Shown here piece by piece: positions 4,394 to 54,917 of a DNA stretch of 64,000 nucleotides. The stretch is from Nitrospirota bacterium. GTDB lineage: Bacteria; Nitrospirota; UBA9217. The position numbers were made by a program, and so were the translations under genes. Position 1 is the first letter of the stretch. Every line of letters starts with the position of its first letter. Below the pieces are notes generated by a model. It was not told where the DNA came from, ran no database searches, and saw only the letters and a program-made list of their open reading frames with translations. The DNA lies in contig CAVUCU010000007.1 in the NCBI GenBank assembly GCA_963740085.1, forward strand, positions 122,835-186,834. The letters run 5' to 3'.

Positions 4394-5062
4394 CTATCCG
4401 TCCAACGGTTCTATGCTTTCCGGCGAATCGTATTTAAAAGAGTTCACCTTTGGAGTAACAGGGAATAATTCCATCTCCTCTGATGGGTAAGGATTCAATA
4501 GCCCGGGAAGAACTGAACTATCCTGAACCCTGGGATCCAGCCATAGGTCATATTTGTCCGCCGGGGCAATGACCGGCATCCGCTCGTGAATGGGCATGAC
4601 CAACTGGTTCGCGCCGGTCGTTATGATCGTACTCATCGTGAGCAGTTCACCGTCCGGGGACCCCCAGGCGTTATACAGTCCGGCAAAGCCAAATGGCTTG
4701 TGTGACTTGAGCCTGACATAGAAAGGCTTCCTTGTCGTTCCTTCCTTTCGCCATTCGTAGAATCCATCAGCCACCACAAGACACCGCTGTTTCTCGAAGG
4801 CCGATTTGAACGCCTTGCTGCTTGCAACGGTCTCCGCACGAGCATTGATCATCCCGTAGCTGGCATCAAGGTCCTGGGACCAGGACGGCACAAAACCCCA
4901 TCGGGACTTGATAAGCCTCCGTTTACCATCGTTGACGACGATCAGAATGTCCTGACTGGGCGCGATGTTATAGTGGGGCGGATATTCAAGATCCCGGTCA
5001 GCGATCCCGAATATCTCCGCGATTACCTCAATGGCGCTATGTATCTCAAATCGTCCGCACAT
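4394..5062 (-). CDS. yedK: SOS response-associated peptidase (SRAP/YedK/HMCES family)
   Basis: The hallmark N-terminus 'MCGRF' (catalytic Cys2) is present along with conserved 'YNIAPSQ' and 'ADGFYEW' motifs. An extended -10 TGCTATACT and an AGGTGA RBS are visible upstream on the minus strand. Confidence 0.9.
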   Translation of the reverse strand: MCGRFEIHSAIEVIAEIFGIADRDLEYPPHYNIAPSQDILIVVNDGKRRLIKSRWGFVPSWSQDLDASYGMINARAETVASSKAFKSAFEKQRCLVVADGFYEWRKEGTTRKPFYVRLKSHKPFGFAGLYNAWGSPDGELLTMSTIITTGANQLVMPIHERMPVIAPADKYDLWLDPRVQDSSVLPGLLNPYPSEEMELFPVTPKVNSFKYDSPESIEPLDG

Positions 5063-5129
5063 AACCGGTCACCTAACCTGTTGTAAGTATAGCACGTTGC
5101 TGCAACCGCGCCCGGGATCCAGAAAACCC

Positions 5130-5159
5130 TTGACAGGTGAACGTTCGTTCACTTATACT
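5130..5159 (+). promoter_or_regulatory. lexA promoter: -35 TTGACA (5130-5135), -10 TATACT (5154-5159), LexA dyad GTGAACGTTCGTTCAC (5137-5152; Cheo-type GAAC-N4-GTTC at 5139-5150)
   Basis: The palindrome lies in the spacer of a sigma-70-like promoter. The ATG at 5166 sits 7 nt after the -10 element, so the lexA mRNA is probably leaderless. Confidence 0.55.
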
Positions 5160-5165
5160 ATCTTC

Positions 5166-5762
5166 ATGCCATCACCGATCGCTAAGGAAGAAAAGCACCG
5201 CTCCCGCATCCGGGACATTGCCCGTTTCCAGCAGAAAAACGGCAGGATGCCCAGTTTTTCAGAGCTCGGCGAGATAACCGGTCTGCGGTCAAAGAACGCG
5301 GTATTCAAGCTTGTAGGCAAGCTGGAAAAGCTCAAGGTCGTGGCGCGGGACAAGAAGGGCAGGCTTATTCCCGGTTCGATCGCCTGCCCTGTCAAGGTGC
5401 TGGGAACGGTCGAGGCAGGCTTCCCCTCTCCCGCGGAAGAAGAGCTGGTTGATACCCTTTCCCTTGATGATTTCCTGATCCAGAACCGGGAGGCAACCTT
5501 TTTGCTCAAGGTATCCGGCGATTCCATGTCCGGCGCGGGGATACTTGCGGGTGATATGGTCATCGTGGATAAGGGCCGGACGCCAAAGAGCGGCGATATT
5601 GTGATCGCCCAGGTGGACGGTGAGTGGACCATGAAGTACTTACGGAAGCGTGGTGACAACGTGACCCTCGTAGCCGCAAACCCCAAATACCAGCCCATCA
5701 AACCGAAGCGTGAACTCAAGATCTCGGGGGTCGTGACAGCCGTGGTGAGAAAATATAAATAG
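5166..5762 (+). CDS. lexA: LexA repressor (wHTH + S24 peptidase domain)
   Basis: The C-terminal 'VSGDSMSGAGILAGDMVIVD...KYLRKRGDNVTLVAANP' has the Ser/Lys dyad context. The N-terminal 'GRMPSFSELGEITGLRS' matches the DNA-binding region. The ORF-track start at 5031 is an over-extension. Confidence 0.85.
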   Translation: MPSPIAKEEKHRSRIRDIARFQQKNGRMPSFSELGEITGLRSKNAVFKLVGKLEKLKVVARDKKGRLIPGSIACPVKVLGTVEAGFPSPAEEELVDTLSLDDFLIQNREATFLLKVSGDSMSGAGILAGDMVIVDKGRTPKSGDIVIAQVDGEWTMKYLRKRGDNVTLVAANPKYQPIKPKRELKISGVVTAVVRKYK

Positions 5763-5783
5763 GGCAAGGCAAAAATGAATTAG

Positions 5784-6001
5784 TCTCACACGAAGCCACA
5801 AAGCCACGAAGAAAGGCGGAACTCGCAAATGTCCATACAACACAAGGATGGAATGACCGAGATGAATTTCGGTGAAGGTATGATGAAAGATGGCATATCC
5901 CGTATTCTGAACGGACAGGTAACATAGTACGAAAAATCATATCTCACACGAAGCTACAAAGAAAAAAGCTCCCCTTCGTGGCTTTGTGCCTTTGTGTGAG
6001 A
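5784..6001. repeat. MITE-like element with ~30-bp terminal inverted repeats (TCTCACACGAAGCCACAAAGCCACGAAG ... CTTCGTGGCTTTGTGCCTTTGTGTGAGA)
   Basis: The ends are reverse complements of each other. The internal 5942-5967 stretch repeats the left end. The motifs are related to the 12014/23135/53224 repeat family. Confidence 0.5.
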
Positions 6002-6190
6002 ACGATCTGTTTTTTACGAGGATCAAATTCCGTCTTGCGGAAAATTATGAACGATGTTAAGCTGAATGCGGATCGAAGCCGATGACATGCCGATACGGCT
6101 GCAGGCTAAAGCAGCACCTCTGGGAAAGCGCATACAGAGAGATGCTTCTTGTCCGAATAAATAAGTTAGGCTCTACTAAGGAGGAAATGA

Positions 6191-7270
6191 GTGGGCGTTG
6201 AGGAGAAAAACAGGAACGAAATCCTTTCCCGGGTAGTTGCCGCTCTCTTTGTGAAATCGAAGGGAGGGGAAGAGCTGTCATCCAATATCCATCGTCTCCG
6301 CGAGGAAATAAAGAAAGTGATCGAAGGTGAGGATACGATATTCGGAAAATTCCGTGGACTCGTGGAATCGTTCCGGGACATCATTCCTGAGGAGAAACAG
6401 CGTTATCATGCCGCTATCCAGGCATTGTCGACAACTTCGAAGCTAAGCCAGCAAGAGATCGTTAAGGCCGTCAACAATCAGTTCGAGGAGCTTAAAATAC
6501 TCGAGAAGGGTTTAATGCCTGCCCTCCCCGGTTGGCGCGACGAGCTTAAGGTCATGGAAACCAGATCGCGGGAGATGCGGGACGAGATATCGAAACTGCG
6601 TGAAAAAATAGGGCAGCTTGAGAGCGAAGAAAAAGGGATACTCACTGGCATGGCGGCACGGGAAAAGGAAATGGCGCTCGTCGAGAAGGCAGTGACCGAA
6701 CTTTTCACGGATTTGGGAGCGGAGATAACCTCTATCAAAAAAAAGGTTGAGGAATTTACTGCTGAAAGTGCGGCCTCTCAGCCAATCCCGGCCAAGGATT
6801 CTATGAAAAGTGATATTCCCCGCGAGGAAAAGGGAAGCGGCGAGCGGAAAAGCGAGATCCCCGAGTCTCCAGCACCGCAGGGTGCGGAATGGCAGAAAAA
6901 ATGCCCTATGTGCGGGGGGCGAATGGACTTCTACAGTCAGGAGGAAATGTGGCAGTGTTATTCCTGCGCATACGAAGAACTAAAAAAGGATGAAGCTCCG
7001 GGTGAAAGCGAAGAGAAAAGTGAGCCTGCGAACGCACCTCAACCCGCTCCGGCTTCGAAGCCGGGTTCCGGTCCATCTCCGCGCCGTGCCGTCCATATGG
7101 GATCCCTGTCTTCCGACGAAAACCAGGAACCAAGAGAGGAATCATCACTGTCCATTAACCAGCCATCGTCCAAAAAAAAGACCTGTCCGGTCTGCCGTAA
7201 AAAGATGGATTGGCACCAGAAGGAGAAGGCCTGGCGGTGCCCCTTCTGCGACTACGAGAGAAGTATCTAA
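6191..7270 (+). CDS. hypothetical coiled-coil protein with two C-terminal zinc ribbons (GTG start)
   Basis: AAGGAGG RBS sits 7 nt before the GTG start. The N-terminal approximately 200 aa is heptad-rich and charged. Zinc ribbons are 'CPMCGGRMD...CYSCAYEE' and 'CPVCRKKMD...CPFCDYE', separated by a Pro/Ser/Glu-rich linker. Confidence 0.6.
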   Translation: MGVEEKNRNEILSRVVAALFVKSKGGEELSSNIHRLREEIKKVIEGEDTIFGKFRGLVESFRDIIPEEKQRYHAAIQALSTTSKLSQQEIVKAVNNQFEELKILEKGLMPALPGWRDELKVMETRSREMRDEISKLREKIGQLESEEKGILTGMAAREKEMALVEKAVTELFTDLGAEITSIKKKVEEFTAESAASQPIPAKDSMKSDIPREEKGSGERKSEIPESPAPQGAEWQKKCPMCGGRMDFYSQEEMWQCYSCAYEELKKDEAPGESEEKSEPANAPQPAPASKPGSGPSPRRAVHMGSLSSDENQEPREESSLSINQPSSKKKTCPVCRKKMDWHQKEKAWRCPFCDYERSI

Positions 7271-8995: not shown

Positions 8996-10309
8996 ATGAC
9001 CGACCAATTCATATCCCTCTCCTCCTGGCCGCAGGCGATCATGCATATCGACGCCGACGCCTTTTTTGCCTCCTGTGAGCAGGCGATCCATCCGGAACTT
9101 AAAGGGAGGCCGGTGATCTGCGGCAAGGAGCGCGGCATTGTCGCCGCCGCGAGCTATGAGGCAAAGGCCCGGGGAGTCACTCGCGGGGTGCGGCTTTCGG
9201 ACGTGAAGAAGATCTGTCCCGATGCGGTCATTCTTCCGTCCGATTATGAGACCTACAGTCTCTTTTCCGTTCGCATGTTCGAGATCCTGCGGCGCTTTTC
9301 ACCTGATGTCGAGGAGTACTCTATTGATGAGGCCTTTGTCGATCTGACCGGCCTGAGACGAAGCTATCATGGCCCGTATGAAGTGATCGCCGAAAAAATG
9401 CGAACAGCGATCGAGACAGAGCTGGGGATCACCGTATCGGCCGGGGTAAGCCTTTCCAAGGTCCTGGCCAAGATCGGATCAAAGCACAATAAACCGAACG
9501 GTCTCACCATGATCCCGGGGAGAGATATTCATCGTTATCTGGAGAAACTGCCTGTCGAAAAGGTCTGGGGCATAGGGGCGAACACGGCGGCATTTCTGAG
9601 AAAGCACGGGATCACAACCGCTTTGCAGTTCACAAAAAAGGACGAGGGCTTCATAAAGAAGTTTCTGTCAAAACCCTACCAGGAGATCTGGCACGAGTTG
9701 AACGGCAGGAGCGTGTACCCGGTCACCACGGAGACAAAGAACAGCTACCAGTCGATAAGCAAGGCCAGGACCTTTACGCCGCCGTCCATGGATGAGGGTT
9801 TTGTATTTGCCCAGCTCTCCAAGAACCTGGAAAACGCATGCATCAAGGCAAGGAGGTACCGGCTGGCGGCCGCGCGGATCATTGTGTTCCTCAGGAAGCA
9901 GGATTTTACGAGCAGTGGAGTGGAAATTAAGCTGACCCGGCCTACCGCGTACCCGGTGGAACTGTTCGGGCTCCTGCGCCAGGGCTTTGAGCAGGTATTC
10001 GAATCCCGGGCCTTATACCGTCAGACAGGGGTCGTTCTTTCCGGCCTGGTCGCGGAGGGCGGGATCCAGTTCAGCCTTTTCGATGATACGACAAAGATAG
10101 AGAAGATGGCCAGGATCTACAGCGTCGTTGATGAGATCTCGGCGAAGTACGGAAAGCACACCATTCAGCACGCAGCGAGCCTGCCGACGAAGCTCCAGGC
10201 CCAGCACGAGGGAGAGCGGGGTGATGTCCCGGTAAGAAGAGCGGACCTGTTCAAAGGTGAGACCAGGCGACAGCGGCTGGGACTGCCCTTACTGCATATG
10301 AAGGTGTAA
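8996..10309 (+). CDS. Y-family DNA polymerase (DinB/UmuC-like translesion polymerase)
   Basis: 'MHIDADAFFASCEQ...GRPVICG...GIVAAASYEAKARGV...SIDEAFVDLTG' matches the Y-family catalytic core. GGAG RBS is 7 nt upstream of the ATG at 8996. Confidence 0.85.
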   Translation: MTDQFISLSSWPQAIMHIDADAFFASCEQAIHPELKGRPVICGKERGIVAAASYEAKARGVTRGVRLSDVKKICPDAVILPSDYETYSLFSVRMFEILRRFSPDVEEYSIDEAFVDLTGLRRSYHGPYEVIAEKMRTAIETELGITVSAGVSLSKVLAKIGSKHNKPNGLTMIPGRDIHRYLEKLPVEKVWGIGANTAAFLRKHGITTALQFTKKDEGFIKKFLSKPYQEIWHELNGRSVYPVTTETKNSYQSISKARTFTPPSMDEGFVFAQLSKNLENACIKARRYRLAAARIIVFLRKQDFTSSGVEIKLTRPTAYPVELFGLLRQGFEQVFESRALYRQTGVVLSGLVAEGGIQFSLFDDTTKIEKMARIYSVVDEISAKYGKHTIQHAASLPTKLQAQHEGERGDVPVRRADLFKGETRRQRLGLPLLHMKV

Positions 10310-10607: not shown

Positions 10608-11999
10608 TTATTTGTCGGGCCGGGTCTTTTTTTTCTTCTTTTTAACGAGGGTCGCTTTTTTTTCCGCCGGCGCGGCTCGCTTTTTATCCGGTTTAACTGC
10701 TCGCGGCGACGATGATGGTACGAACAGGGTCGTCGTGACCGAGGAGCTGACCAACGATGGTACGGGTACAGGAGAAGTCAAGCTCAACGATGAGCCGGCA
10801 GTGTCTTGCAGGAGCAGGGGCGCAGAATGAGTCAATCTAAGCGATGAACCCGGAGCATCCTGCTGGAGCGTTGTCTCCGGAGAGGTCGGTGTAATTGCCG
10901 TAGTTACAAGAGGCTGACTTACCAGGAAATTCGTCATCGATTGCTTTGCAGGAACAACGGTTTGACGAGGGAGGGTTTCTTTGGTCGATTTCGCCTGGTA
11001 GTGATAGAGCGTGGCTCCGGCAATAAGGAGAAGCACCGCCGAGGCAACGAGGGCACTCCTGAGCCATCCTCCACTCGTCGGCCTGCTGTTGATGATCCCG
11101 GCTTCCTGCTCCGGCATCGAGTCCAGGATATTCCGCGAGACGAGGTAGTCTGCAATGCGGCGAAGCGAGGCCGCCTTCGTGGTCCTGCCCGCAAGATATC
11201 TTCCCAGTTTTCTCTCGACCTCCAGCATTGAGCCGTAGCGCTGGTGTGGTTTTTTTCTGAGACACTTCTTGATGAGCCGCTGAAGTCGCCACGGAATTTC
11301 TTTGTTGACGCGGCGCGGAGCAAGGAACTTGTCTTTCAAGATCTTAACAGTGACCGAACGGGCATCCTCATCGCTAAAGGGCTTGACACCGGTAAACATC
11401 TCGTACAATACGACGCCGAAGGAAAAGATGTCCGATCGTACATCAAGCTGCTGACCGAGGATCTGCTCGGGTGACATATAGGCGGGCGTCCCGATGAGCG
11501 TGCCGGGCAAGGTCAGGGCCTCAAGGTTCCTGGTATGAGCGATGCCGAAATCCATGAGCTTGACCTCGCCGTTCCTCTTGATCATTATATTGCTCGGTTT
11601 GATGTCGCGGTGGATGAACCCGCGCATATGCGCATAATCCAGGGCATTGCTGACCTGAATGGCGATCATGATCCCCACATCGACCGGCAGGGCCCCGATC
11701 TTCCCGATCACGTCGGCAAAGTTGGCGCCGTCAACGTATTCCATAACGATGCTGTAGGTCGGTTTGTTCCAGTAATCGTAGATGTGAACGATATTCTCGT
11801 GCTGGAGCGAAGCAGCAACCCTGCTTTCGCGCTCGAACCGCTTGACGATCTGGACATCAGCATGATAGGCCTTCTTCAGTTCCTTGATGGCCACCGGCCG
11901 GCCAAGGGACTTCTGGACGGCCTTATACACTGTGGCCATGCCCCCGGCGCCGATCTCGCCCACGACTTCATATTCATCTTTTATCTGTTGTCTCGGCAT
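10608..11999 (-). CDS. Hanks-type Ser/Thr protein kinase with TM segment, Ser/Thr/Pro-rich linker and poly-Lys C-terminus
   Basis: Kinase motifs are 'GAGGMATVYKA', 'VAIK', 'HRDIKPSNIM', 'DFG' and 'APE'. The C-terminus is '...KKATLVKKKKKKTRPDK'. The ORF-track start at 12059 is an over-extension. Confidence 0.85.
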   Translation of the reverse strand: MPRQQIKDEYEVVGEIGAGGMATVYKAVQKSLGRPVAIKELKKAYHADVQIVKRFERESRVAASLQHENIVHIYDYWNKPTYSIVMEYVDGANFADVIGKIGALPVDVGIMIAIQVSNALDYAHMRGFIHRDIKPSNIMIKRNGEVKLMDFGIAHTRNLEALTLPGTLIGTPAYMSPEQILGQQLDVRSDIFSFGVVLYEMFTGVKPFSDEDARSVTVKILKDKFLAPRRVNKEIPWRLQRLIKKCLRKKPHQRYGSMLEVERKLGRYLAGRTTKAASLRRIADYLVSRNILDSMPEQEAGIINSRPTSGGWLRSALVASAVLLLIAGATLYHYQAKSTKETLPRQTVVPAKQSMTNFLVSQPLVTTAITPTSPETTLQQDAPGSSLRLTHSAPLLLQDTAGSSLSLTSPVPVPSLVSSSVTTTLFVPSSSPRAVKPDKKRAAPAEKKATLVKKKKKKTRPDK

Positions 12000-12013
12000 A
12001 ACGATATCCTTAT

Positions 12014-12150
12014 CCGGACAAGCCGGAACCAAATATGCCACAAAGACACGAAGGCACAAAGAAATTCATACAGAGGTTTGTGATTTACCGAGTCCCTAAT
12101 TCTTCGTGTTCTCTTTGAAGCTTGGAGCCTTCGCGGCTGAATTTTGTTTT
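12014..12150. repeat. intergenic repeat family copy A (CCGGACAAGCCGGAACCAAATATGCCACA...CACGAAG...TTCTTCGTG...GCCTTCGCGGCTGAATTTTGTTT)
   Basis: It aligns with copies at 23135-23332 and 53224-53390. It sits between the PP2C and kinase genes inside an operon. Confidence 0.5.
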
Positions 12151-12177
12151 ATTTTAAGAAGATTGATTTGTAACTGT

Positions 12178-12939
12178 CTAAACCTCCGTCACCCAAACCA
12201 CGACCGCCGTGATATTGTCAATGCCCCCGCCGTCGTTTGCCGCGGCCAGCAGCTTGTGTACAGCGTCGCGGGGTCCCGTTGTTGACAGGAGACCGATGAT
12301 CTCTGCATCATCAACCATTCCCGTCAGGCCGTCGGTGCACAGGAGCAGCCGGTCCTCCCGCTGCAGCGCGAGCGAGGTGATGTCCGCCTTCACCTCTTCA
12401 TCGATGCCCAGGGCCCGGGTGATCACATGTCGGTAAGGACTCGTCCTCGCCTGCTCGGGCGTAAGTGCGCCGGCGCGGAGCTGCTCTGCCACGAAAGAAT
12501 GGTCATTCGTCAGCTGCGTGAGCTTCCCGGACCGGAGGAGATAAGCACGGCTGTCACCGATATGAGCAATAAACATGCGGCCCTTCCGGAGCAGAAGTGC
12601 GGTAAGCGTGGTTGCCATACCTGCGAGCCCCGGATTGTGAGTGTGTACCGCGCGAATAGTACGGTTCGCGAGGTTGAGCGCATTCGTAAGCGCCATGGTT
12701 TCGGGATCTGCTCTGGACGTCACTCCTGCCGGAGGAGTCCTGTCCTTTTCTCCGAGCAGGTCCGGCATGGAAGCCGCGAGTGTCTCAACGGCCATGCGGC
12801 TCGCGACCTCTCCTCCCTCGTTCCCCCCCACCCCGTCCGCAACAGCATAGAGGCAGAATTCGTCGTTCAGCAGATACGCGTCTTCGTTATTGGTTCTCTT
12901 TTTACCGGTATCGGTCCCGCCGAAGGAGGCTATCTTCAT
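12178..12939 (-). CDS. PP2C-family Ser/Thr protein phosphatase
   Basis: 'GGTDTGKKRTNNEDAY', 'VADGVGGNEGGEVAS' and the C-terminal 'DGGGIDNITAVVV' are present. Confidence 0.85.
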   Translation of the reverse strand: MKIASFGGTDTGKKRTNNEDAYLLNDEFCLYAVADGVGGNEGGEVASRMAVETLAASMPDLLGEKDRTPPAGVTSRADPETMALTNALNLANRTIRAVHTHNPGLAGMATTLTALLLRKGRMFIAHIGDSRAYLLRSGKLTQLTNDHSFVAEQLRAGALTPEQARTSPYRHVITRALGIDEEVKADITSLALQREDRLLLCTDGLTGMVDDAEIIGLLSTTGPRDAVHKLLAAANDGGGIDNITAVVVWVTEV

Positions 12940-18725: not shown

Positions 18726-19169
18726 CTATGCCGCCTGGAGCGTCAATGCCAGCTTTCCGAATCTGAGCTCGTCGCCCGCTTTGACCATCTGTGGCGCATG
18801 GGGCTGGATCTTCTTCTTGTTGATATAGGTGCCGTTCGTGGAACCCATGTCCTCAACCGTGTAGTTTGCGCCCGACCGGTGAATGACCGCATGTTTGCGG
18901 GATACGCCCTTATCCATGCCGCCAAGATTGGTCAGGTCCAGATCCGGGAACACATCGCTGATGGGGTCCTCTCTGCCGATAATGATCTCGTCCTTAACAG
19001 GGATCTCGAGCGAGTTGCCATCGATGGACATGAGCACCAGACTTGTCCCTTCGCTGTCCATTTCAGCGGCCGTGTCCTTGCCTTCGATTACGGTTTCAAG
19101 CTTTGCTCCGCACTCTTCGCAGAAGAGCGCTCCTTCGATGTTTTCTATCTGACATGCTGTGCATTTCAT
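18726..19169 (-). CDS. zinc-ribbon + FHA domain protein (147 aa)
   Basis: 'CTACQIENIEGALFCEECG' is followed by FHA 'IIIGREDPI...SRKHAVIHRSGANYTVEDMGSTNGTYIN'. Confidence 0.8.
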   Translation of the reverse strand: MKCTACQIENIEGALFCEECGAKLETVIEGKDTAAEMDSEGTSLVLMSIDGNSLEIPVKDEIIIGREDPISDVFPDLDLTNLGGMDKGVSRKHAVIHRSGANYTVEDMGSTNGTYINKKKIQPHAPQMVKAGDELRFGKLALTLQAA

Positions 19170-19263
19170 GGTAATACCCTCCTTTTTTTAATTATGCATG
19201 GCGCATAGCGCATGGTGCATAGGGTTATGTCTCTCTGACTCCTGACTCCTGACTCCTCACGCC

Positions 19264-20597: not shown

Positions 20598-21554
20598 CTA
20601 TCCCACCGTAACCACTACCGCGGTAATATTGTCCTTGCCGCCATGTGCGTTCGCCAACCGAACCAGTTCCTCACTCGCTGACCGTGCATCTTTTCCGGAT
20701 AAAACGGCCTGGTGAATGTCCTTATCTCTCACCTCTCCCCAGAGTCCATCCGTGCACAGCATGAGATGACCGCCCTTTTTCAGCTCCACCCGGAATGTAT
20801 CCACGGTGATATTCTCATCAGTCCCGATCGTGCGATAGAGCAGATTGGACTTGGGGTGGCCCCTTGCCTCTTCTTTCGTCATTTTCCCAATGGCAACCAG
20901 CTTTGCAACCAGGGAATGGTCCCGGGTGATCTGGGTGATGGACCGTTCTTCTATCCAGTAGACCCTGCTGTCCCCGACATTCGCGATATAGGCGGTATTG
21001 TCAATTACCAGCGCGAGACTGATCGTAGTCCCCATGTTCGATCCCCTGTGCGCGCCCTCTTTTTTCACTTCGCTGTTTGCCTTCCGCACGACATGCTCGA
21101 TGAGCTTGAGTGGGTTCTCGTTCTGCTCCAGATGTTCTTCTATTTCCCTGCAAGCGGTCTCCACCGCGATCCTGCTTGCAACTTCTCCTGCGTCGTGTCC
21201 GCCCATACCGTCAGCCACGACATACAAAGACGCTTTCCCGAAAGAAACACAGGAGAAGCTGTCCTCGTTCTGGGGCCTGACCATGCCCGTGTTCGTCAGA
21301 CCATGCCAGGCATCGGACACTGGTACGGGCACAGGACATCCGGCGTCAAGATCAGCCGCTGCACCTGTCTCAGGCCTCAGCCTCCGCGTATAGGCCGGTT
21401 GGAGCACCTGAGTCATTGATCTGGGTGTCTCTACGAAGGGAAATATTGCCCTTGCTTCAAGAACCTCGTCTGTCAATGTATGCTTTGCAGTTGCCTCCAT
21501 CTTCTCGCCCCTTGTAAACATATTTTTCATCCAGTTTATCCAACCATGTGCCAT
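20598..21554 (-). CDS. PP2C-family Ser/Thr protein phosphatase with N-terminal extension
   Basis: 'VRPQNEDSF', 'VVADGMGGHDAGEVASRIAVE' and 'HGGKDNITAVVV' are present. Confidence 0.8.
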   Translation of the reverse strand: MAHGWINWMKNMFTRGEKMEATAKHTLTDEVLEARAIFPFVETPRSMTQVLQPAYTRRLRPETGAAADLDAGCPVPVPVSDAWHGLTNTGMVRPQNEDSFSCVSFGKASLYVVADGMGGHDAGEVASRIAVETACREIEEHLEQNENPLKLIEHVVRKANSEVKKEGAHRGSNMGTTISLALVIDNTAYIANVGDSRVYWIEERSITQITRDHSLVAKLVAIGKMTKEEARGHPKSNLLYRTIGTDENITVDTFRVELKKGGHLMLCTDGLWGEVRDKDIHQAVLSGKDARSASEELVRLANAHGGKDNITAVVVTVG

Positions 21555-21626: not shown

Positions 21627-22076
21627 GAATTGAAATGAACGATCGCGACGGCACACGGGCAGACAGAAGTCTTTACGATACAGACGGTTGTGGGTATTGA
21701 TGCTGCGGGTGTATTGCTCGGGTGGGGGGGATGATTCGCTGGAAATTATATGGTTATCGAAAGGGGGTATTCGATTTTCGAAGACTAGTGCACGGTAAAA
21801 CTAATTCTTGATTATATTGCACACATATTTATCGTTTATTACCTTGGCATGATTTTAGTTACAGCTAAGTCAATGCATACCTAAAAGGGAAGAATATTTA
21901 ACCGCGAAGGCGCCAAGTACGCGAAGAAAATCTATGGGCTTTTGTTTTAAACACGAAAGCTTTTTTGACGTCCTTTGCGACCCTGGCGCCTTTGCGGTTC
22001 AAAGACTTTGGTTTCGGCTTTTCCGGGTTAGGTAACATGACGGTTCGGAACCATCAACAATTAATTTTATGAGGTA

Positions 22077-22580
22077 CTAGTGTTCTTTGAGAAGGACTTC
22101 GGTGACAGCCTTGCGGCTCGATGCATGTTTCTGTGCCTTGGGATGACCGACGGCAACGACTGCCATGAGCTCCATCTCTTTTGGCAAACCGAGAAGCGTG
22201 CGCACCGCCTCGGCATTCTTGAGGATCTCCCCAAGCCAGACCGCACCCAACCCCATCGCGTGAGCCGCGAGAAGCATGTTCTGGATGCAGGCACCCATGG
22301 CCTGGTGATCCTTTACGTCGTTATACATTACCGTCCTGTCAACGAAAACGGCAATGCAGGCCGGCGCCCGTTCGATAACAAAGCCGTAGTTTGTCTGCTT
22401 GCCAAGCTCCTTCTTGACGTCTGTCTTCTGAACGATCACGAACCGCCACGGCTGGTTGTTCAACCCCGACGGCGCCCATGTCCCGGCCTTGATGATCTCG
22501 AGCAACCGATCCCGCTCAACAGTCTGTTCAGTAAATTCCCGAACGCTCCGGCGCGTATATATTCCTTCGAGAATATCCAT
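22077..22580 (-). CDS. nitroreductase family protein
   Basis: 'RRSVREF', 'AGTWAPSGLNNQPWRFVIV' and 'AMGLGAVWLG' are present. Confidence 0.8.
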   Translation of the reverse strand: MDILEGIYTRRSVREFTEQTVERDRLLEIIKAGTWAPSGLNNQPWRFVIVQKTDVKKELGKQTNYGFVIERAPACIAVFVDRTVMYNDVKDHQAMGACIQNMLLAAHAMGLGAVWLGEILKNAEAVRTLLGLPKEMELMAVVAVGHPKAQKHASSRKAVTEVLLKEH

Positions 22581-22583
22581 TCG

Positions 22584-23102
22584 TTATGGCTTCACCTGCT
22601 CGACAAATCTTCCCCGATAGGTGGCATGACCATCGCATTTTTCAAATACGAACTGGCAGATCCTGGTGCCCGGATAGAGCGCTAACGGACCATGTCCCAA
22701 ATTCACCATTTCCAGGACCTGATGGTTGGCAATGCCGGGATGCATAAAACCAGCGGTCACATGAACTGCCAGTCCAAAACGCGCAAATCTGCTTCTTCCT
22801 TCAAGACGGCCGGATATGTTGTCGGCAAGCGTGATCTTTTCTTTCGTGATACCCAGGATCATCTCATCCGGCTTGATAACGATATAATCGCCGTCTTTCA
22901 CGTGGACACCCCTGGTTATGTCCTGAAAATGAGAATCGTTTTTTATGTGATAGATCTTTGATCGCTTTTTAAAGATCCTGAAATCATTGCCGAGGGAAAG
23001 ATCGATTGAACCCGGTCCGATCTGCGATCTGTCGAGCGGTTCAACAATTATCGATCTCTTCTTTAAAGCCTTCTCTATTTCTTTTCCGATCAAGACGCTC
23101 AT
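22584..23102 (-). CDS. dcd: dCTP deaminase
   Basis: 'IGPGSIDLSLGN' and 'LEMVNLGHGPLALYPG' are dUTPase/dCTP deaminase-fold motifs. Confidence 0.85.
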   Translation of the reverse strand: MSVLIGKEIEKALKKRSIIVEPLDRSQIGPGSIDLSLGNDFRIFKKRSKIYHIKNDSHFQDITRGVHVKDGDYIVIKPDEMILGITKEKITLADNISGRLEGRSRFARFGLAVHVTAGFMHPGIANHQVLEMVNLGHGPLALYPGTRICQFVFEKCDGHATYRGRFVEQVKP

Positions 23103-23134
23103 GGTATGTTAGCCCCTTTGGTCATTATTTTTTC

Positions 23135-23332
23135 CTGACCCGGACAGGCTTGAACCAAATATGCCACAATGGCCAAAAAGAGGGCCACACTGAGACACCC
23201 TCGACAGATTCGTTCGAGGGCAGGCTTCGGCACGAAGAAGTTCAAATATAGGTTTGTGATTTAAACTCCTTAATTCTTCGTGTTTTCTTTGTGCCTTAGA
23301 GCCGTCGTGGCTGAATTTTGTTTCCATTGAGT
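23135..23332. repeat. intergenic repeat family copy B (contains an extra internal hairpin CCCTCGACAGATTCGTTCGAGGG)
   Basis: It aligns with copies A and C and lies between the C-N hydrolase and dcd genes on the same strand. Confidence 0.5.
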
Positions 23333-23419: not shown

Positions 23420-24226
23420 CTACTTCACCAGTTCGCCGTACTCGCCGGGCTTGCGATTCCTGAGGAACCCCCAGGTCTCCGTGGCAGCTGCGCGCTCCGC
23501 AATGTCGATATCGGCAAGAACGATCGCCTCCTTGCTGCCGGCAAGCTCGGATGCCATCTCGCCCCAGGGGTCCACACAGAAGCTCCTGCCGTAGAACGAG
23601 ACGCCATCCTCCTGACCCACACGGTTGACCCGGAAGATGTACATATTGTTGGCGAAGGCGTTGGCGCATATGGCCCGCTCCCAGAGGCTGTGCGTATTGA
23701 GCGACGCGGCAGTCGGCGCGAACACGATCTCGGCGCCCTTGAGAGCGAGGACCCGGCTGCCCTCGGGGAAAAGGTTGTCCCAGCAGATCTGGACACCGAT
23801 CCTGCCCTGCGACGTCTCGAACACGGGGATCCCGGAATCTCCGGGAGAAAAGTAGAATTGTTCGCGGTACAGGGGGAGATCGGGAATGTGCAATTTGCGA
23901 TAGACGCCGAGCAGCTTGCCGCGATCAAAGACCGCCGCGCTGTTATAATACGTGCCGCTGACGGACTCGAAGAACGGGACGATGAGCACGGTCCCGGTCT
24001 TCTCGGAAACCTTCTGAAACCGGCCGAGCGTCTCGCCGAGAGAGCTGATCGCCCAGGAAAAGAGCGACTTGTTTTCCTGTTTCGGGAACCAGGTTGTAAG
24101 GAACAGCTCGGGATAACAGATGACACTGGCATCCTTTTCAGCCGCCACTTCGGCCATTTCCACGGCGCGCTGGATATTCCTTCCGACATCCTGACCAGCG
24201 CTGATTTGTATTCCGGCTATTCGCAT
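23420..24226 (-). CDS. carbon-nitrogen hydrolase (nitrilase superfamily) protein
   Basis: 'MRIAGIQISAG', the Glu context 'CYPELF', the Lys context 'YRKLHIP' and the Cys context 'GVQICWDNLFPE' are present. Confidence 0.8.
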   Translation of the reverse strand: MRIAGIQISAGQDVGRNIQRAVEMAEVAAEKDASVICYPELFLTTWFPKQENKSLFSWAISSLGETLGRFQKVSEKTGTVLIVPFFESVSGTYYNSAAVFDRGKLLGVYRKLHIPDLPLYREQFYFSPGDSGIPVFETSQGRIGVQICWDNLFPEGSRVLALKGAEIVFAPTAASLNTHSLWERAICANAFANNMYIFRVNRVGQEDGVSFYGRSFCVDPWGEMASELAGSKEAIVLADIDIAERAAATETWGFLRNRKPGEYGELVK

Positions 24227-27315: not shown

Positions 27316-28320
27316 ATGTATACCCTCGGAATAGAAACCTCATGCGATGAAACCGCGGCTGCGGTGCTGCAGGACGAAAAGGTACTGTCAAACATAGTAT
27401 CCTCGCAGATCGACATCCACAAAAAATTCGGCGGCGTGGTCCCCGAACTCGCATCACGTGAGCACCTTAAGAACCTGATGCCTGTTATCCGCGAGGCGCT
27501 TACCTCCGCATCGGTTACACTCAAGGACATCAACCTCATCGCGGTCACGTACACGCCCGGCCTGATCGGCGCGCTGCTCGTGGGAGTGTCCGCTGCCAAG
27601 GCCATTGCGTATGCGAGCGGCATCCCCTTCATCGGCGTGCACCACGGTGAAGGGCACATCCTCGCGGCGCATATCGAGTATCCGGGTATCGGTTATCCTT
27701 ACATTGCCCTCCTCGTGTCGGGTGGACATACAGCGATCTACCACGTCAAGGGCCTCGGCGAATACCGTCTCCTTGGCCAGACGCGGGACGACGCAGCGGG
27801 CGAAGCCTATGATAAGGTAGCTAAGCTGCTTGGTCTCGAATACCCCGGCGGTCCGGTGCTCGACAAACTCGCCCAGGAGGGCAATCCAGGGACAGTCAAA
27901 TTTCCACGAGGCCATCTGGAGGGCTGCGACTTCAGCTTCAGCGGGCTCAAGACCGCGGTCAGAAACCACCTTGCCCTCTTCAGGAGCAAAGACAAGGGAC
28001 TCGACCCGGGCCTGAACATCAAGGACATTGCGGCCAGTTTTCAGGCTGCGGTCGTGGACACGCTCGTTAACAAGACCATGCAGGCGGCAAGCGGAACGGG
28101 CGTGGACAAGATCGTGGTTGCCGGCGGCGTGGCTGCGAACAGTCTGCTCCGGAAAAGAATGCTGGATGAAGCGGGGAAGCACGGCGCCACACTCTATCTC
28201 CCGGCTATGGGCCTCTGCATCGACAACGCCGCCATGATCGCCCTCGCGGGATATCTCCACCATCAACGCGGCGAGAACTCAAACCTTGACCTGAATCCCC
28301 GACCCGGCATGCCGCTGTGA
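27316..28320 (+). CDS. tsaD: tRNA N6-adenosine threonylcarbamoyltransferase TsaD
   Basis: 'MYTLGIETSCDETAAAVL', 'GVHHGEGH' and 'VAGGVAAN' are present. Confidence 0.9.
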   Translation: MYTLGIETSCDETAAAVLQDEKVLSNIVSSQIDIHKKFGGVVPELASREHLKNLMPVIREALTSASVTLKDINLIAVTYTPGLIGALLVGVSAAKAIAYASGIPFIGVHHGEGHILAAHIEYPGIGYPYIALLVSGGHTAIYHVKGLGEYRLLGQTRDDAAGEAYDKVAKLLGLEYPGGPVLDKLAQEGNPGTVKFPRGHLEGCDFSFSGLKTAVRNHLALFRSKDKGLDPGLNIKDIAASFQAAVVDTLVNKTMQAASGTGVDKIVVAGGVAANSLLRKRMLDEAGKHGATLYLPAMGLCIDNAAMIALAGYLHHQRGENSNLDLNPRPGMPL

Positions 28321-28330
28321 ATTATTCTCA
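28284..28330. repeat. direct repeat L (attL-like): last 37 nt of tsaD plus 10 nt downstream
   Basis: 43 of 47 nt match 31882-31928. Confidence 0.6.
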
Positions 28331-31764: not shown

Positions 31765-31881
31765 TCTCCACCTCCTGTCCGAATAACGTACCATAAAAGG
31801 TCCTTTAACGCAAGCGGCTTTTTCGGTCATCAAATGACTTTACGCCCATGGGTTAAACTTTAAGCGTGGCGATATCTCCAG

Positions 31882-31928
31882 CCTTGACCTGAACCCCCGC
31901 CCCAGCATGCCGCTGTGAGTTATTCTCA
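31882..31928. repeat. direct repeat R (attR-like): diverged copy of the tsaD 3' end
   Basis: 91% identical to 28284-28330. It would encode ...LDLNPRPSMPL* in the tsaD frame. Confidence 0.6.
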
Positions 31929-52738: not shown

Positions 52739-53209
52739 TCATCGATTGTTGTTCTTTTCAATTATCTGCTTCGCCATGGACGCGAGTACACCATCCGGGC
52801 TCACGGTAAATGGCTCGACGGCCTGAATCGCCCTCGGTCCGCCTATCTGTCCCAAGCTGCGGATCGCGCTCTTCATCACGACGGGCGACTGATCAACAGC
52901 AAGCAACTGTATGAGAGGCGAGATCGCCTCGCGGGAACCGATCATGCCCAGCGCTTTTACCGCGCTCTTCCGCACCCGCTCTTCCGGGTCGCTGAACATG
53001 GCGATAAGCCGCGGCACAGCCTCATGCGAACCAAGCTCCCCGAGGGAATAGGCGGCGTTGTTCCTGACCGCCATGATTTTGTCGTCGAGCGCCTCTATCA
53101 AAGCCTTCTCGGCCCCCTTGCCCTTAAGCTTCCCGAGTTCGGCGGCGGCGTTCACCCGGACCATCCCGAGACCGTTCTTCAGATCATTGATCAAACGCTC
53201 AAGACTCAT
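52739..53209 (-). CDS. HEAT-repeat (PBS-lyase-like) protein
   Basis: Repeated approximately 30-aa units 'AVRNNAAYSLGELGSHEAVPRLIAM / VRKSAVKALGMIGSREAISPLIQLL / VMKSAIRSLGQIGGPRAIQAV' are present. Confidence 0.7.
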   Translation of the reverse strand: MSLERLINDLKNGLGMVRVNAAAELGKLKGKGAEKALIEALDDKIMAVRNNAAYSLGELGSHEAVPRLIAMFSDPEERVRKSAVKALGMIGSREAISPLIQLLAVDQSPVVMKSAIRSLGQIGGPRAIQAVEPFTVSPDGVLASMAKQIIEKNNNR

Positions 53210-53223
53210 CGCCTCCTCCTAAT

Positions 53224-53390
53224 CCGGACAAACCGGAACCAAATATGCCACACTGGCCAAGAAGAGGGCCACACTGAGACACGAAGACGCGAAGAAATTC
53301 ATGCGGAGGTTGTAATTCAATAATTCCTTAATTCTTCGTGTTTTCTTTGAGTCTTGGAGCCTTCGTGGCTGAATTTTGTTTCCATTTTGA
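53224..53390. repeat. intergenic repeat family copy C
   Basis: It aligns with copies A and B. It ends at the AGGAGG RBS of the HEAT-repeat gene and lies between two same-strand genes. Confidence 0.5.
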
Positions 53391-54768: not shown

Positions 54769-54917
54769 CGAAGCCTCAATCAGAATAAAATGCAAAAGTC
54801 AAAATGCGAAAGGTAAAGTGCACCACCACATGAGACGCGGATGACAGGATTTCGTTCGGAGAAATCTTTTTGAGTTTCCTAAGCGGCCCTTTTCCTATAA
54901 GGCATGTGCCTCAGCGG

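Follow-up and report, generated by a model that had tools for sequence, protein, structure and literature searches.

The spacer between a PP2C gene and a protein kinase gene in the 64-kb stretch of DNA analyzed here, referred to as the window, contains a sequence (12014–12150) that returns between other genes of the same stretch, which raises the question of what kind of element it is and what it might do there. An earlier note had listed at least three copies of 140–200 bp (12014–12150, 23135–23332 and 53224–53390, here copies A, B and C) and had read them as a transcribed intergenic repeat of the ERIC/BIME kind, with a mobile promoter or 5'-UTR module and a regulator-binding array as further options. 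The family proved to be real. In a MAFFT alignment, A, B and C are homologous and share long invariant blocks on the minus strand, and a profile built from these three recovered them with nhmmer at E-values of 2e-58, 8e-66 and 4e-68. The invariant 17-mer TGTGGCATATTTGGTTC occurs 3 times in the window, allowing at most 2 mismatches, compared with 0.01 expected occurrences based on 100 shuffles, and the matches among the three copies are not low-complexity sequence. The copies themselves thus stood, but their true extents are wider than had been given, and three more members (D, E and F) were found, so that the window holds six family members in 64 kb.

Copy A is a short form on the minus strand (12008–12177), identified by nhmmer, by a covariance model and by an ortholog in another contig (L037, 9718–9954). 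It comprises a leader (12150–12177), hairpin arms with their loop (12037–12137) and a tail (12008–12033), and it makes up the entire spacer from the PP2C stop codon (12178–12180) to the kinase ATG (12000–12002); the two flanking genes, at 12178–12939 and 10608–12002, respectively, are both on the minus strand. Copy B, a long form without leader (23134–23328, minus strand; nhmmer and covariance model), has its tail at 23134–23159, a GGCC hairpin module at 23169–23194, a CCCTCGA/TCGAGGG hairpin module at 23197–23229, and arms and loop extending to 23328. It lies between minus-strand genes for a C-N hydrolase (23420–24226) and a dCTP deaminase (dcd, 22584–23102). Copy C, an intermediate form detected by the same two methods (53218–53388, minus strand), has its tail at 53218–53243, a GGCC hairpin module at about 53253–53277, and arms and loop up to 53388, and is flanked on the minus strand by a sigma-54 activator gene and by the gene of a HEAT-repeat protein (52739–53209). 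Pfam searches confirmed these three pairs of neighbors as they had been named from the sequence.

Copy D belongs to a diverged subfamily and was found on the plus strand at 21878–22035 (nhmmer E 1e-10, covariance model E 1e-18), with the arms ACCGCGAAG GCGCCAAG TACGCGAAG / CCTTTGCGA CCCTGGCGC CTTTGCGGT and a tail at 22007–22032. Its neighbors, a PP2C gene (20598–21554) and a nitroreductase gene (22077–22580), are both on the minus strand, and the copy is antisense to both. Copy E, a degenerate member on the plus strand (about 1020–1239), was detected by an approximate search for the tail sequence; its remnants are arm-2 units, CTTTGTGCGCTTCGTGCCTTCGTG, at 1044–1067 and a tail-like sequence, TATTTTTCCGGTTTGTCAGGGTTACG, at 1214–1239, between genes for a histidine kinase (57–992) and a response regulator (1283–1633). 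Copy F, a diverged member on the plus strand (5783–6042; arm-unit array search, covariance model E 1e-4), contains a hairpin (5945–5998), an extra arm-1 array (5783–5811) and a tail-like hairpin, TTCCGTCTTGCGGAA, at 6028–6042, and is located between a LexA-like gene (5031–5762) and an ORF at 6191–7270. The right-hand extension of the source contig (8.8 kb) contained no additional copy. Copy F is part of an SOS-type cluster at 4394–7270 that consists of an SRAP peptidase gene (4394–5062, minus strand), the LexA-like S24 peptidase gene on the plus strand, the copy itself and the ORF, whose 359-aa product gave only sub-threshold zinc-ribbon matches of the IS1595, Cas12f-TNB or PriA type.

Flanking genes were called by a codon-usage score, together with the collections' own gene calls where available. 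All 6 copies of the window lie between co-directional neighbors, as the earlier note had claimed for its three, and same-strand gene pairs flank nearly all copies at the other loci too, where the element is often the whole spacer and abuts both stop and start codons. The further claim of a constant orientation did not hold. Five of the six window copies are sense to the flanking genes and copy D is antisense; elsewhere, about 8 copies are sense compared with 10–11 antisense. This mixed orientation removes the basis on which a mobile promoter or 5'-UTR module had been proposed.

Based on an alignment of more than 20 copies, the element is a mosaic of modules with a length of 130–250 bp. An optional 5' leader, GTCAGTTAAGAATCAAATTCTTTTCAAAAT, is present in A and not in B or C. 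Arm 1 consists of three or four units of 8–9 nt with the consensus CRCNAAG (in A–C, GCCACGAAG GCTCCAAG ACACAAAG ..CACGAAG), the loop between the arms is A/T-rich and 15–70 nt long, and arm 2 consists of three complementary units of the type CTTNGYG (CTTCGTGC CTTCGTGT CTTTGTGGC). Two optional small hairpins are inserted in arm 2 and recur in unrelated copies: GTGGCCCTCTTCTTGGCCA in B, C, L004, L013, L022 and L037a, and GCCTGCCCTCGAA...TCGAGGG in B, L009, L022 and L037a. The latter is the extra perfect hairpin (CCCTCGA...TCGAGGG) previously seen in copy B, which is hence a recurrent module. The 3' tail, TTTGGTTCCGG-CTTGT-CCGGGTTAGG (also written TTTGGTTCCGGCTTGTCCGGGTTAGG), is the best-conserved segment in every subfamily, and one copy, L013b, consists of arms only. 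Across 12 copies from very different subfamilies, the C, A, A and G of C.AAG are invariant in all three arm-1 units, as are the matching bases of arm 2; this invariance exceeds what a hairpin would need and suggests sequence-specific recognition by some protein. A small-peptide reading of the element (ATGGAAACAAAATTCAGCCACGAAGGC...) was rejected, as the ATG is absent in about 40% of the copies, there is no Shine-Dalgarno sequence, and indels of units interrupt the frame.

The element is an imperfect palindrome, in that every copy matches its own reverse complement, and a long interrupted hairpin of about equal stability is predicted on both strands. The inverted CACGAAG/CTTCGTG motifs can indeed fold as had been suggested. 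The arms of different subfamilies change together (GCCAC/GTGGC, ACCGC/GCGGT, CTCGC/GCGAG and ACCAC/GTGGT). In a 12-sequence alignment, 97% of the cells of the basal helix were paired, compared with 39–55% in slid controls, and double changes occurred at 3 basal-helix pairs (GC/AU/CG, CG/UA and AU/GC). The covariation score was reached by 0 of 500 shuffles, and RNAalifold agreed. These data show arms that form a hairpin maintained by compensatory changes. In most copies the hairpin of the tail lacks a counterpart at the 5' end, so that the element is not fully symmetric. The transcribed strand folded no better than its complement, with a mean difference of +1.5 kcal/mol and the transcribed strand favored in 4 of 14 copies. 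Given this lack of a strand advantage and the mixed orientation, the element behaves as a symmetric palindrome rather than as a leader or RNA gene with a set direction.

The search for copies in related genomes, which had also been proposed, found them in about a dozen metagenome contigs and in at least three MAGs of Nitrospirota. In a scan of one genome per species, the exact 27-nt pattern had five sites, all within the three MAGs, and a 20-mer was present in 16 contigs of JGI metagenomes, at least 4 of which duplicate MAG contigs or each other. The nhmmer profile and the covariance model verified full-length or partial elements at these loci and added extra copies there, giving more than 20 non-redundant copies outside the window. 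The carrier contigs have approximately 1 copy per 5–10 kb, and the density in the present contig is approximately 1 per 10 kb as extrapolated from 64 kb. Five related non-carrier Nitrospirota loci (about 80 kb), located via dcd homologues of 84–89% identity, contained 0 copies. Rfam gave 0 matches for the whole window at the gathering threshold, and the region of copy C, searched with a limit of E ≤ 10, gave chance-level matches only (E 0.13 and 3.7, far below threshold). Blastn returned no match in the 5,426 complete E. coli genomes searched, in which ERIC, REP/BIME and RU elements occur, and a plasmid search was likewise negative. Three exact tail matches in viral contigs all lie in GC-rich coding repeats and were discarded as chance matches. 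Full-text literature searches retrieved no description of such repeats for these uncultured Nitrospirota. The family is previously undescribed and was found in some uncultured Nitrospirota; it is a known kind of element and forms no new category. A public contig, contig_79659 of ENA ERZ25039463 (201.5 kb; L001/L041), is 99.6–99.8% identical to the window with 21 gap openings in 34 kb, differences that look as if a long-read assembly had been polished in another way or came from a variant strain.

The history of individual copies could be followed at orthologous sites. The FHA/VWA/PP2C/kinase/sigma-54-activator cluster of the window is also present in a MAG contig, CAKYSL010000043 (L037), whose PP2C/kinase junction is occupied by a long-form element (9718–9954) with both hairpin modules that A lacks. 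Over the shared columns, copy A and this ortholog are identical at 127 of 142 positions (89%). Between the same two contigs, the four-fold sites of the PP2C and kinase genes are identical at 227 of 312 positions (73%; Fisher 5e-5 vs copy A), those immediately adjacent to copy A have an identity of 0.68–0.71, and the other intercistronic spacers of the cluster are 45–71% identical. Four-fold identity along the kinase gene is uneven, ranging from 0.67 to 1.0. The constraint on copy A is real, although its support is modest, because it is read from one orthologous pair and because synonymous divergence varies along the kinase gene; it gives a hint of function at this junction. In the more distant orthologues L038 and L039/L040, leader-like and tail sequences are kept at the PP2C/kinase junction and the hairpin is absent.

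Two further spacers differ between the window and L037. The histidine kinase/response regulator junction holds the degenerate copy E in the window and vestiges only in L037, and the kinase/sigma-54-activator spacer holds a copy, L037b, in L037 and none in the window. Such presence/absence differences at orthologous sites are compatible with loss as well as with gain. Pairwise identities among A, B and C are 82–87%, no higher than to copies from other genomes, which indicates that the family is old; there was no sign of a recent transposition burst at this level of within-genome identity. As judged from the aligned sites, copies have been gained or lost over time, some have decayed and at least one has been maintained. 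The dcd route to an orthologous spacer of copy B, which started from 896 homologues, found none, and the neighborhood was not conserved in the seven that were inspected.

Other repeats were observed in the same DNA. Spacers of the FHA/VWA/kinase cluster contain short tandem repeats, e.g. (AGGAGTC)3, GACGAGGGACGACGGACG and GGGTGATGGGTG, at about 19169–19262 of the window and in neighboring spacers (L001 13841–13934, 14379–14491 and 16775–16801), and these spacers are nearly unalignable with their L037 orthologues (45–48% identity). A second, A/T-rich repeat motif, CATTTTGACTTTTGCATTTT, lies at 54790–54812 (minus strand), just upstream of the start of the sigma-54 activator gene. It is identical over 20 nt to a stretch at 10113–10135 of L010, a contig of a Nitrospirota MAG from Hainich, and also occurs in the flanks of L018, L009 and L004. 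At these loci, TTTGCA-rich arrays flank or interrupt palindromic elements, and in L018 such an array is nested inside the element. A 64-nt direct repeat that is unrelated to the palindromic family (...CCTTGACCTGAA.CCCCG.CCC.GCATGCCGCTGTGA.TTATTCTCA) is present at 28267–28330 and 31865–31928 with 86% identity. One of its copies is located at the 3' end of a TsaD-like gene, and the other separates the gene of an antitoxin from that of a DEAD-box helicase.

The conserved tail has a particular relation to translation starts. The earlier note had placed the end of the repeat immediately before the ribosome-binding site of the downstream gene, which is nearly right, but the AGG(A) that is positioned as a Shine-Dalgarno sequence lies inside the repeat, being its terminal part just 3' of a small CCGG hairpin. 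The ATG of a long ORF follows 5–8 nt past the tail in 5 of 20 non-redundant tails (copies A and C of the window, L037a, L008b and L010b). Four of these cases are independent, as L037a is the ortholog of A. In copy A, the tail AAGGA is located 8 nt before the kinase ATG, and in copy C the tail TAGGAGGAGG is located 8 nt before the ATG (53207–53209) of the HEAT-repeat gene. The predicted fold of copy A pairs AGGAUAU of the tail with AUAUUU of the element. Downstream of copy B, an 8-codon upstream ORF, ATGACCAAAGGGGCTAACATACCATGA (MTKGANIP; 23099–23125, minus strand), starts 8 nt after the AGGA of the tail, and its stop codon overlaps the start codon of dcd (ATGA), a start that is fixed by 172-aa homologues. 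The repeat may thereby have created a translational coupling of the upstream ORF to dcd. More generally, the tail probably serves as the ribosome-binding site of some downstream genes, judging from its position. In the Hainich contig, a single spacer (L010 9933–10216) contains two members with their tails outwards, a full copy and a fragment consisting of arm 2 plus tail, with a TTTGCA-rich array between them; the tail of the fragment gives AGGAG 5 nt before a 490-aa gene.

Comparison with known systems shows that the kind of element named in the earlier note fits, given the palindrome, the mosaic structure, the dispersal and the co-directional gene pairs, but membership in ERIC or BIME by sequence does not, based on the blastn search. 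Like ERIC/IRU (about 127 bp), the family is an imperfect palindrome found in presumably transcribed intergenic regions of operons in either orientation, with length variants that arise by indels at fixed points and with well-conserved copies of no coding capacity. Unlike ERIC, with which it has no sequence similarity and which belongs to another phylum, it has arms built of tandem 8–9 nt units and an asymmetric conserved tail predicted to end in a usable Shine-Dalgarno sequence. It resembles BIME in being a mosaic of recurring small modules, and REPIN in having two inverted arms that form one long hairpin. As with REP and REPIN-RAYT systems, its copies are extragenic, old and largely vertical in descent, and some are kept at orthologous sites. 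In contrast to these systems, a GTAG-type REP head is absent, each arm is built from repeated units that add up to about 25 nt instead of from one REP palindrome, and no RAYT was seen beside any copy.

The family also shares with Correia/NEMIS and bacterial MITEs a small, non-coding body that is bounded by inverted repeats, has length variants from internal deletions and is presumably co-transcribed. It is below 600 bp, multi-copy and non-coding, has terminal inverted repeats, and shows presence/absence at orthologous sites, all of which characterize bacterial MITEs. The ends of Correia elements donate promoters to the neighboring genes, and here the ends would donate a ribosome-binding site. 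Unlike Correia and MITEs, the family has no demonstrable target-site duplication and no known parent IS, and its copies are 82–89% identical rather than near-identical. BOX of Streptococcus pneumoniae (boxA-boxB(n)-boxC) is likewise modular and intergenic, has internal units that vary in number and is predicted to fold stably as RNA, but its sequence is unrelated and its units are about 45 nt long compared with 8–9 nt here.

The best explanation, to which we assign a probability of roughly 60%, is that of an old, lineage-restricted, dispersed, mosaic palindromic intergenic repeat of the ERIC/REPIN/MITE type that is co-transcribed within operons, i.e., a Nitrospirota counterpart of ERIC, REP/BIME/REPIN, Correia and BOX. 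What was observed directly comprises the membership of the copies in one family, the hairpin with its covariation, the distribution, the mixed orientation, and gain, loss and constraint at orthologous sites. The elements would have spread by transposition as non-autonomous elements, whose mobilizer would most obviously be a Y1/HUH or DDE transposase, and the family would by now be mostly old, vertically inherited and largely fixed. Because the copies lie inside operons, they would be transcribed with their neighbors within polycistronic mRNA, and the transcript is expected to contain an interrupted stem-loop of 30–40 bp in either orientation. Between cistrons, such a stem-loop could act as a decay barrier or as a processing site, and where a copy is sense, the AGG(A) at the end of its tail, by its position, would serve as the Shine-Dalgarno sequence of the downstream gene.

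Traces of mobilization were sought around the copies. At the loci examined, no copy has a transposase gene as a neighbor and no transposase with ends like those of the element was seen; neither a clean target-site duplication nor a clean empty site was detected. TA often occurs just outside both ends of the element and GGAT flanks L010, with boundaries that are not sharp; as a target-site trace, the TA is only suggestive. Y1 transposase genes were seen only in contigs that do not carry the repeat. In L027 (7501–8808 and 9054–9926), the gene for a 290-aa Y1 transposase (IS200-like/RAYT-like) directly precedes dcd, beside an IS110 transposase gene, and L028 (13553–13879) contains a 108-aa Y1 fragment. 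Genes of this type may point to the sort of enzyme by which such repeats are mobilized.

A different and tentative reading, possible although on balance unlikely, takes the element as a domesticated, portable module for intercistronic expression. The CCGG hairpin and the AGG tail would then act as the ribosome-binding site, in copy B via the coupled 8-codon ORF, and the long hairpin would be read by a dedicated protein or RNase that sets the relative expression of the cistrons. If this were true, purifying selection at sites of the PP2C/kinase type would explain why the element there has outlasted synonymous divergence. A related and likewise tentative possibility is that the family represents the first REPIN-RAYT-like system of long-term replicators described in Nitrospirota.

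We regard as somewhat less probable still that the inverted triplets of CRCNAAG units, the tail or both constitute an operator- or iteron-like array of double-stranded DNA sites bound by a regulator of the host, by a nucleoid-associated protein or by a transposase that has been domesticated, in which case the palindrome would reflect binding symmetry. The sites could also be those that the mobilizing enzyme recognizes. The four bases that are invariant in every unit of 12 copies beyond the requirement for pairing, a tail whose conservation exceeds that of all other segments in each subfamily, and the equivalence of both orientations with no strand asymmetry in folding would all fit such an array. 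However, the 8–9 bp spacing of the units is out of helical phase, and the compensatory changes in the outer helix are predicted by a folded hairpin but only loosely by two independent half-sites. The neighbors (a kinase, dcd, a HEAT protein, a response regulator and a LexA neighbor) have no common function, which makes a common regulon unlikely, and no candidate binding protein was identified.

An oriented cis-regulatory RNA, acting as a mobile 5'-UTR or leader for the downstream gene, or else a discrete structured small RNA made from the element strand, is very unlikely, even though 5 of the 6 window copies point to the downstream gene and AGG(A) precedes the start codon by 5–8 nt in several copies. 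In copy A, the tail can also pair with the Shine-Dalgarno sequence (AUAUUU/GGAUAU), and the leader contains a sigma-70-like match (TAGACA-18-TAAAAT) that is found in no other copy. Against these points, roughly one copy in two is antisense to its neighbors and the transcribed strand has no folding advantage; B and C lack the leader, whose consensus has a spacer of 20 nt, no terminator-like sites were found, and no Rfam family matches.

The segment TGGCATATTTGGTTCC, noted earlier for its likeness to a -24 element, is highly improbable as the -24/-12 element of a promoter cassette for sigma-54 (or another sigma factor): A, B and C share TGGCAT without variation and several sigma-54 activators are encoded nearby, but the -12 GC is missing in every copy, TGGCA is absent from diverged members that keep the rest of the architecture (copy D, L034b, L037b and L008b), and half of all family members face away from any gene. 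Integron-type attC sites, like the VCRs of Vibrio, are barely credible, for although the tail GTTAGGT/GTTAGGA fits the GTTRRRY core, ACCTAA-like inverse cores occur at the 5' end of copy D and L010, the imperfect palindrome has an attC-like size and the copies separate co-directional ORFs, the copies are dispersed over 50 kb in both orientations, their neighbors are conserved and syntenic (the FHA/VWA/PP2C/kinase cluster common to another MAG) rather than cassettes, the annotated neighborhoods contain no integrase and most copies lack the inverse core.

The dispersed palindromic repeats of Proteobacteria and Firmicutes are well documented, and the old, co-transcribed palindromic repeat that we favor would be their counterpart in Nitrospirota. 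A repeat of this frequency breaks short-read assemblies and could be used as a lineage marker, and the AGGA-ATG arrangement that it supplies confuses the calling of gene starts. The series of orthologous sites at which copies are conserved (A), decayed (E) or lost could make it possible to separate selfish relics from working parts of operons.
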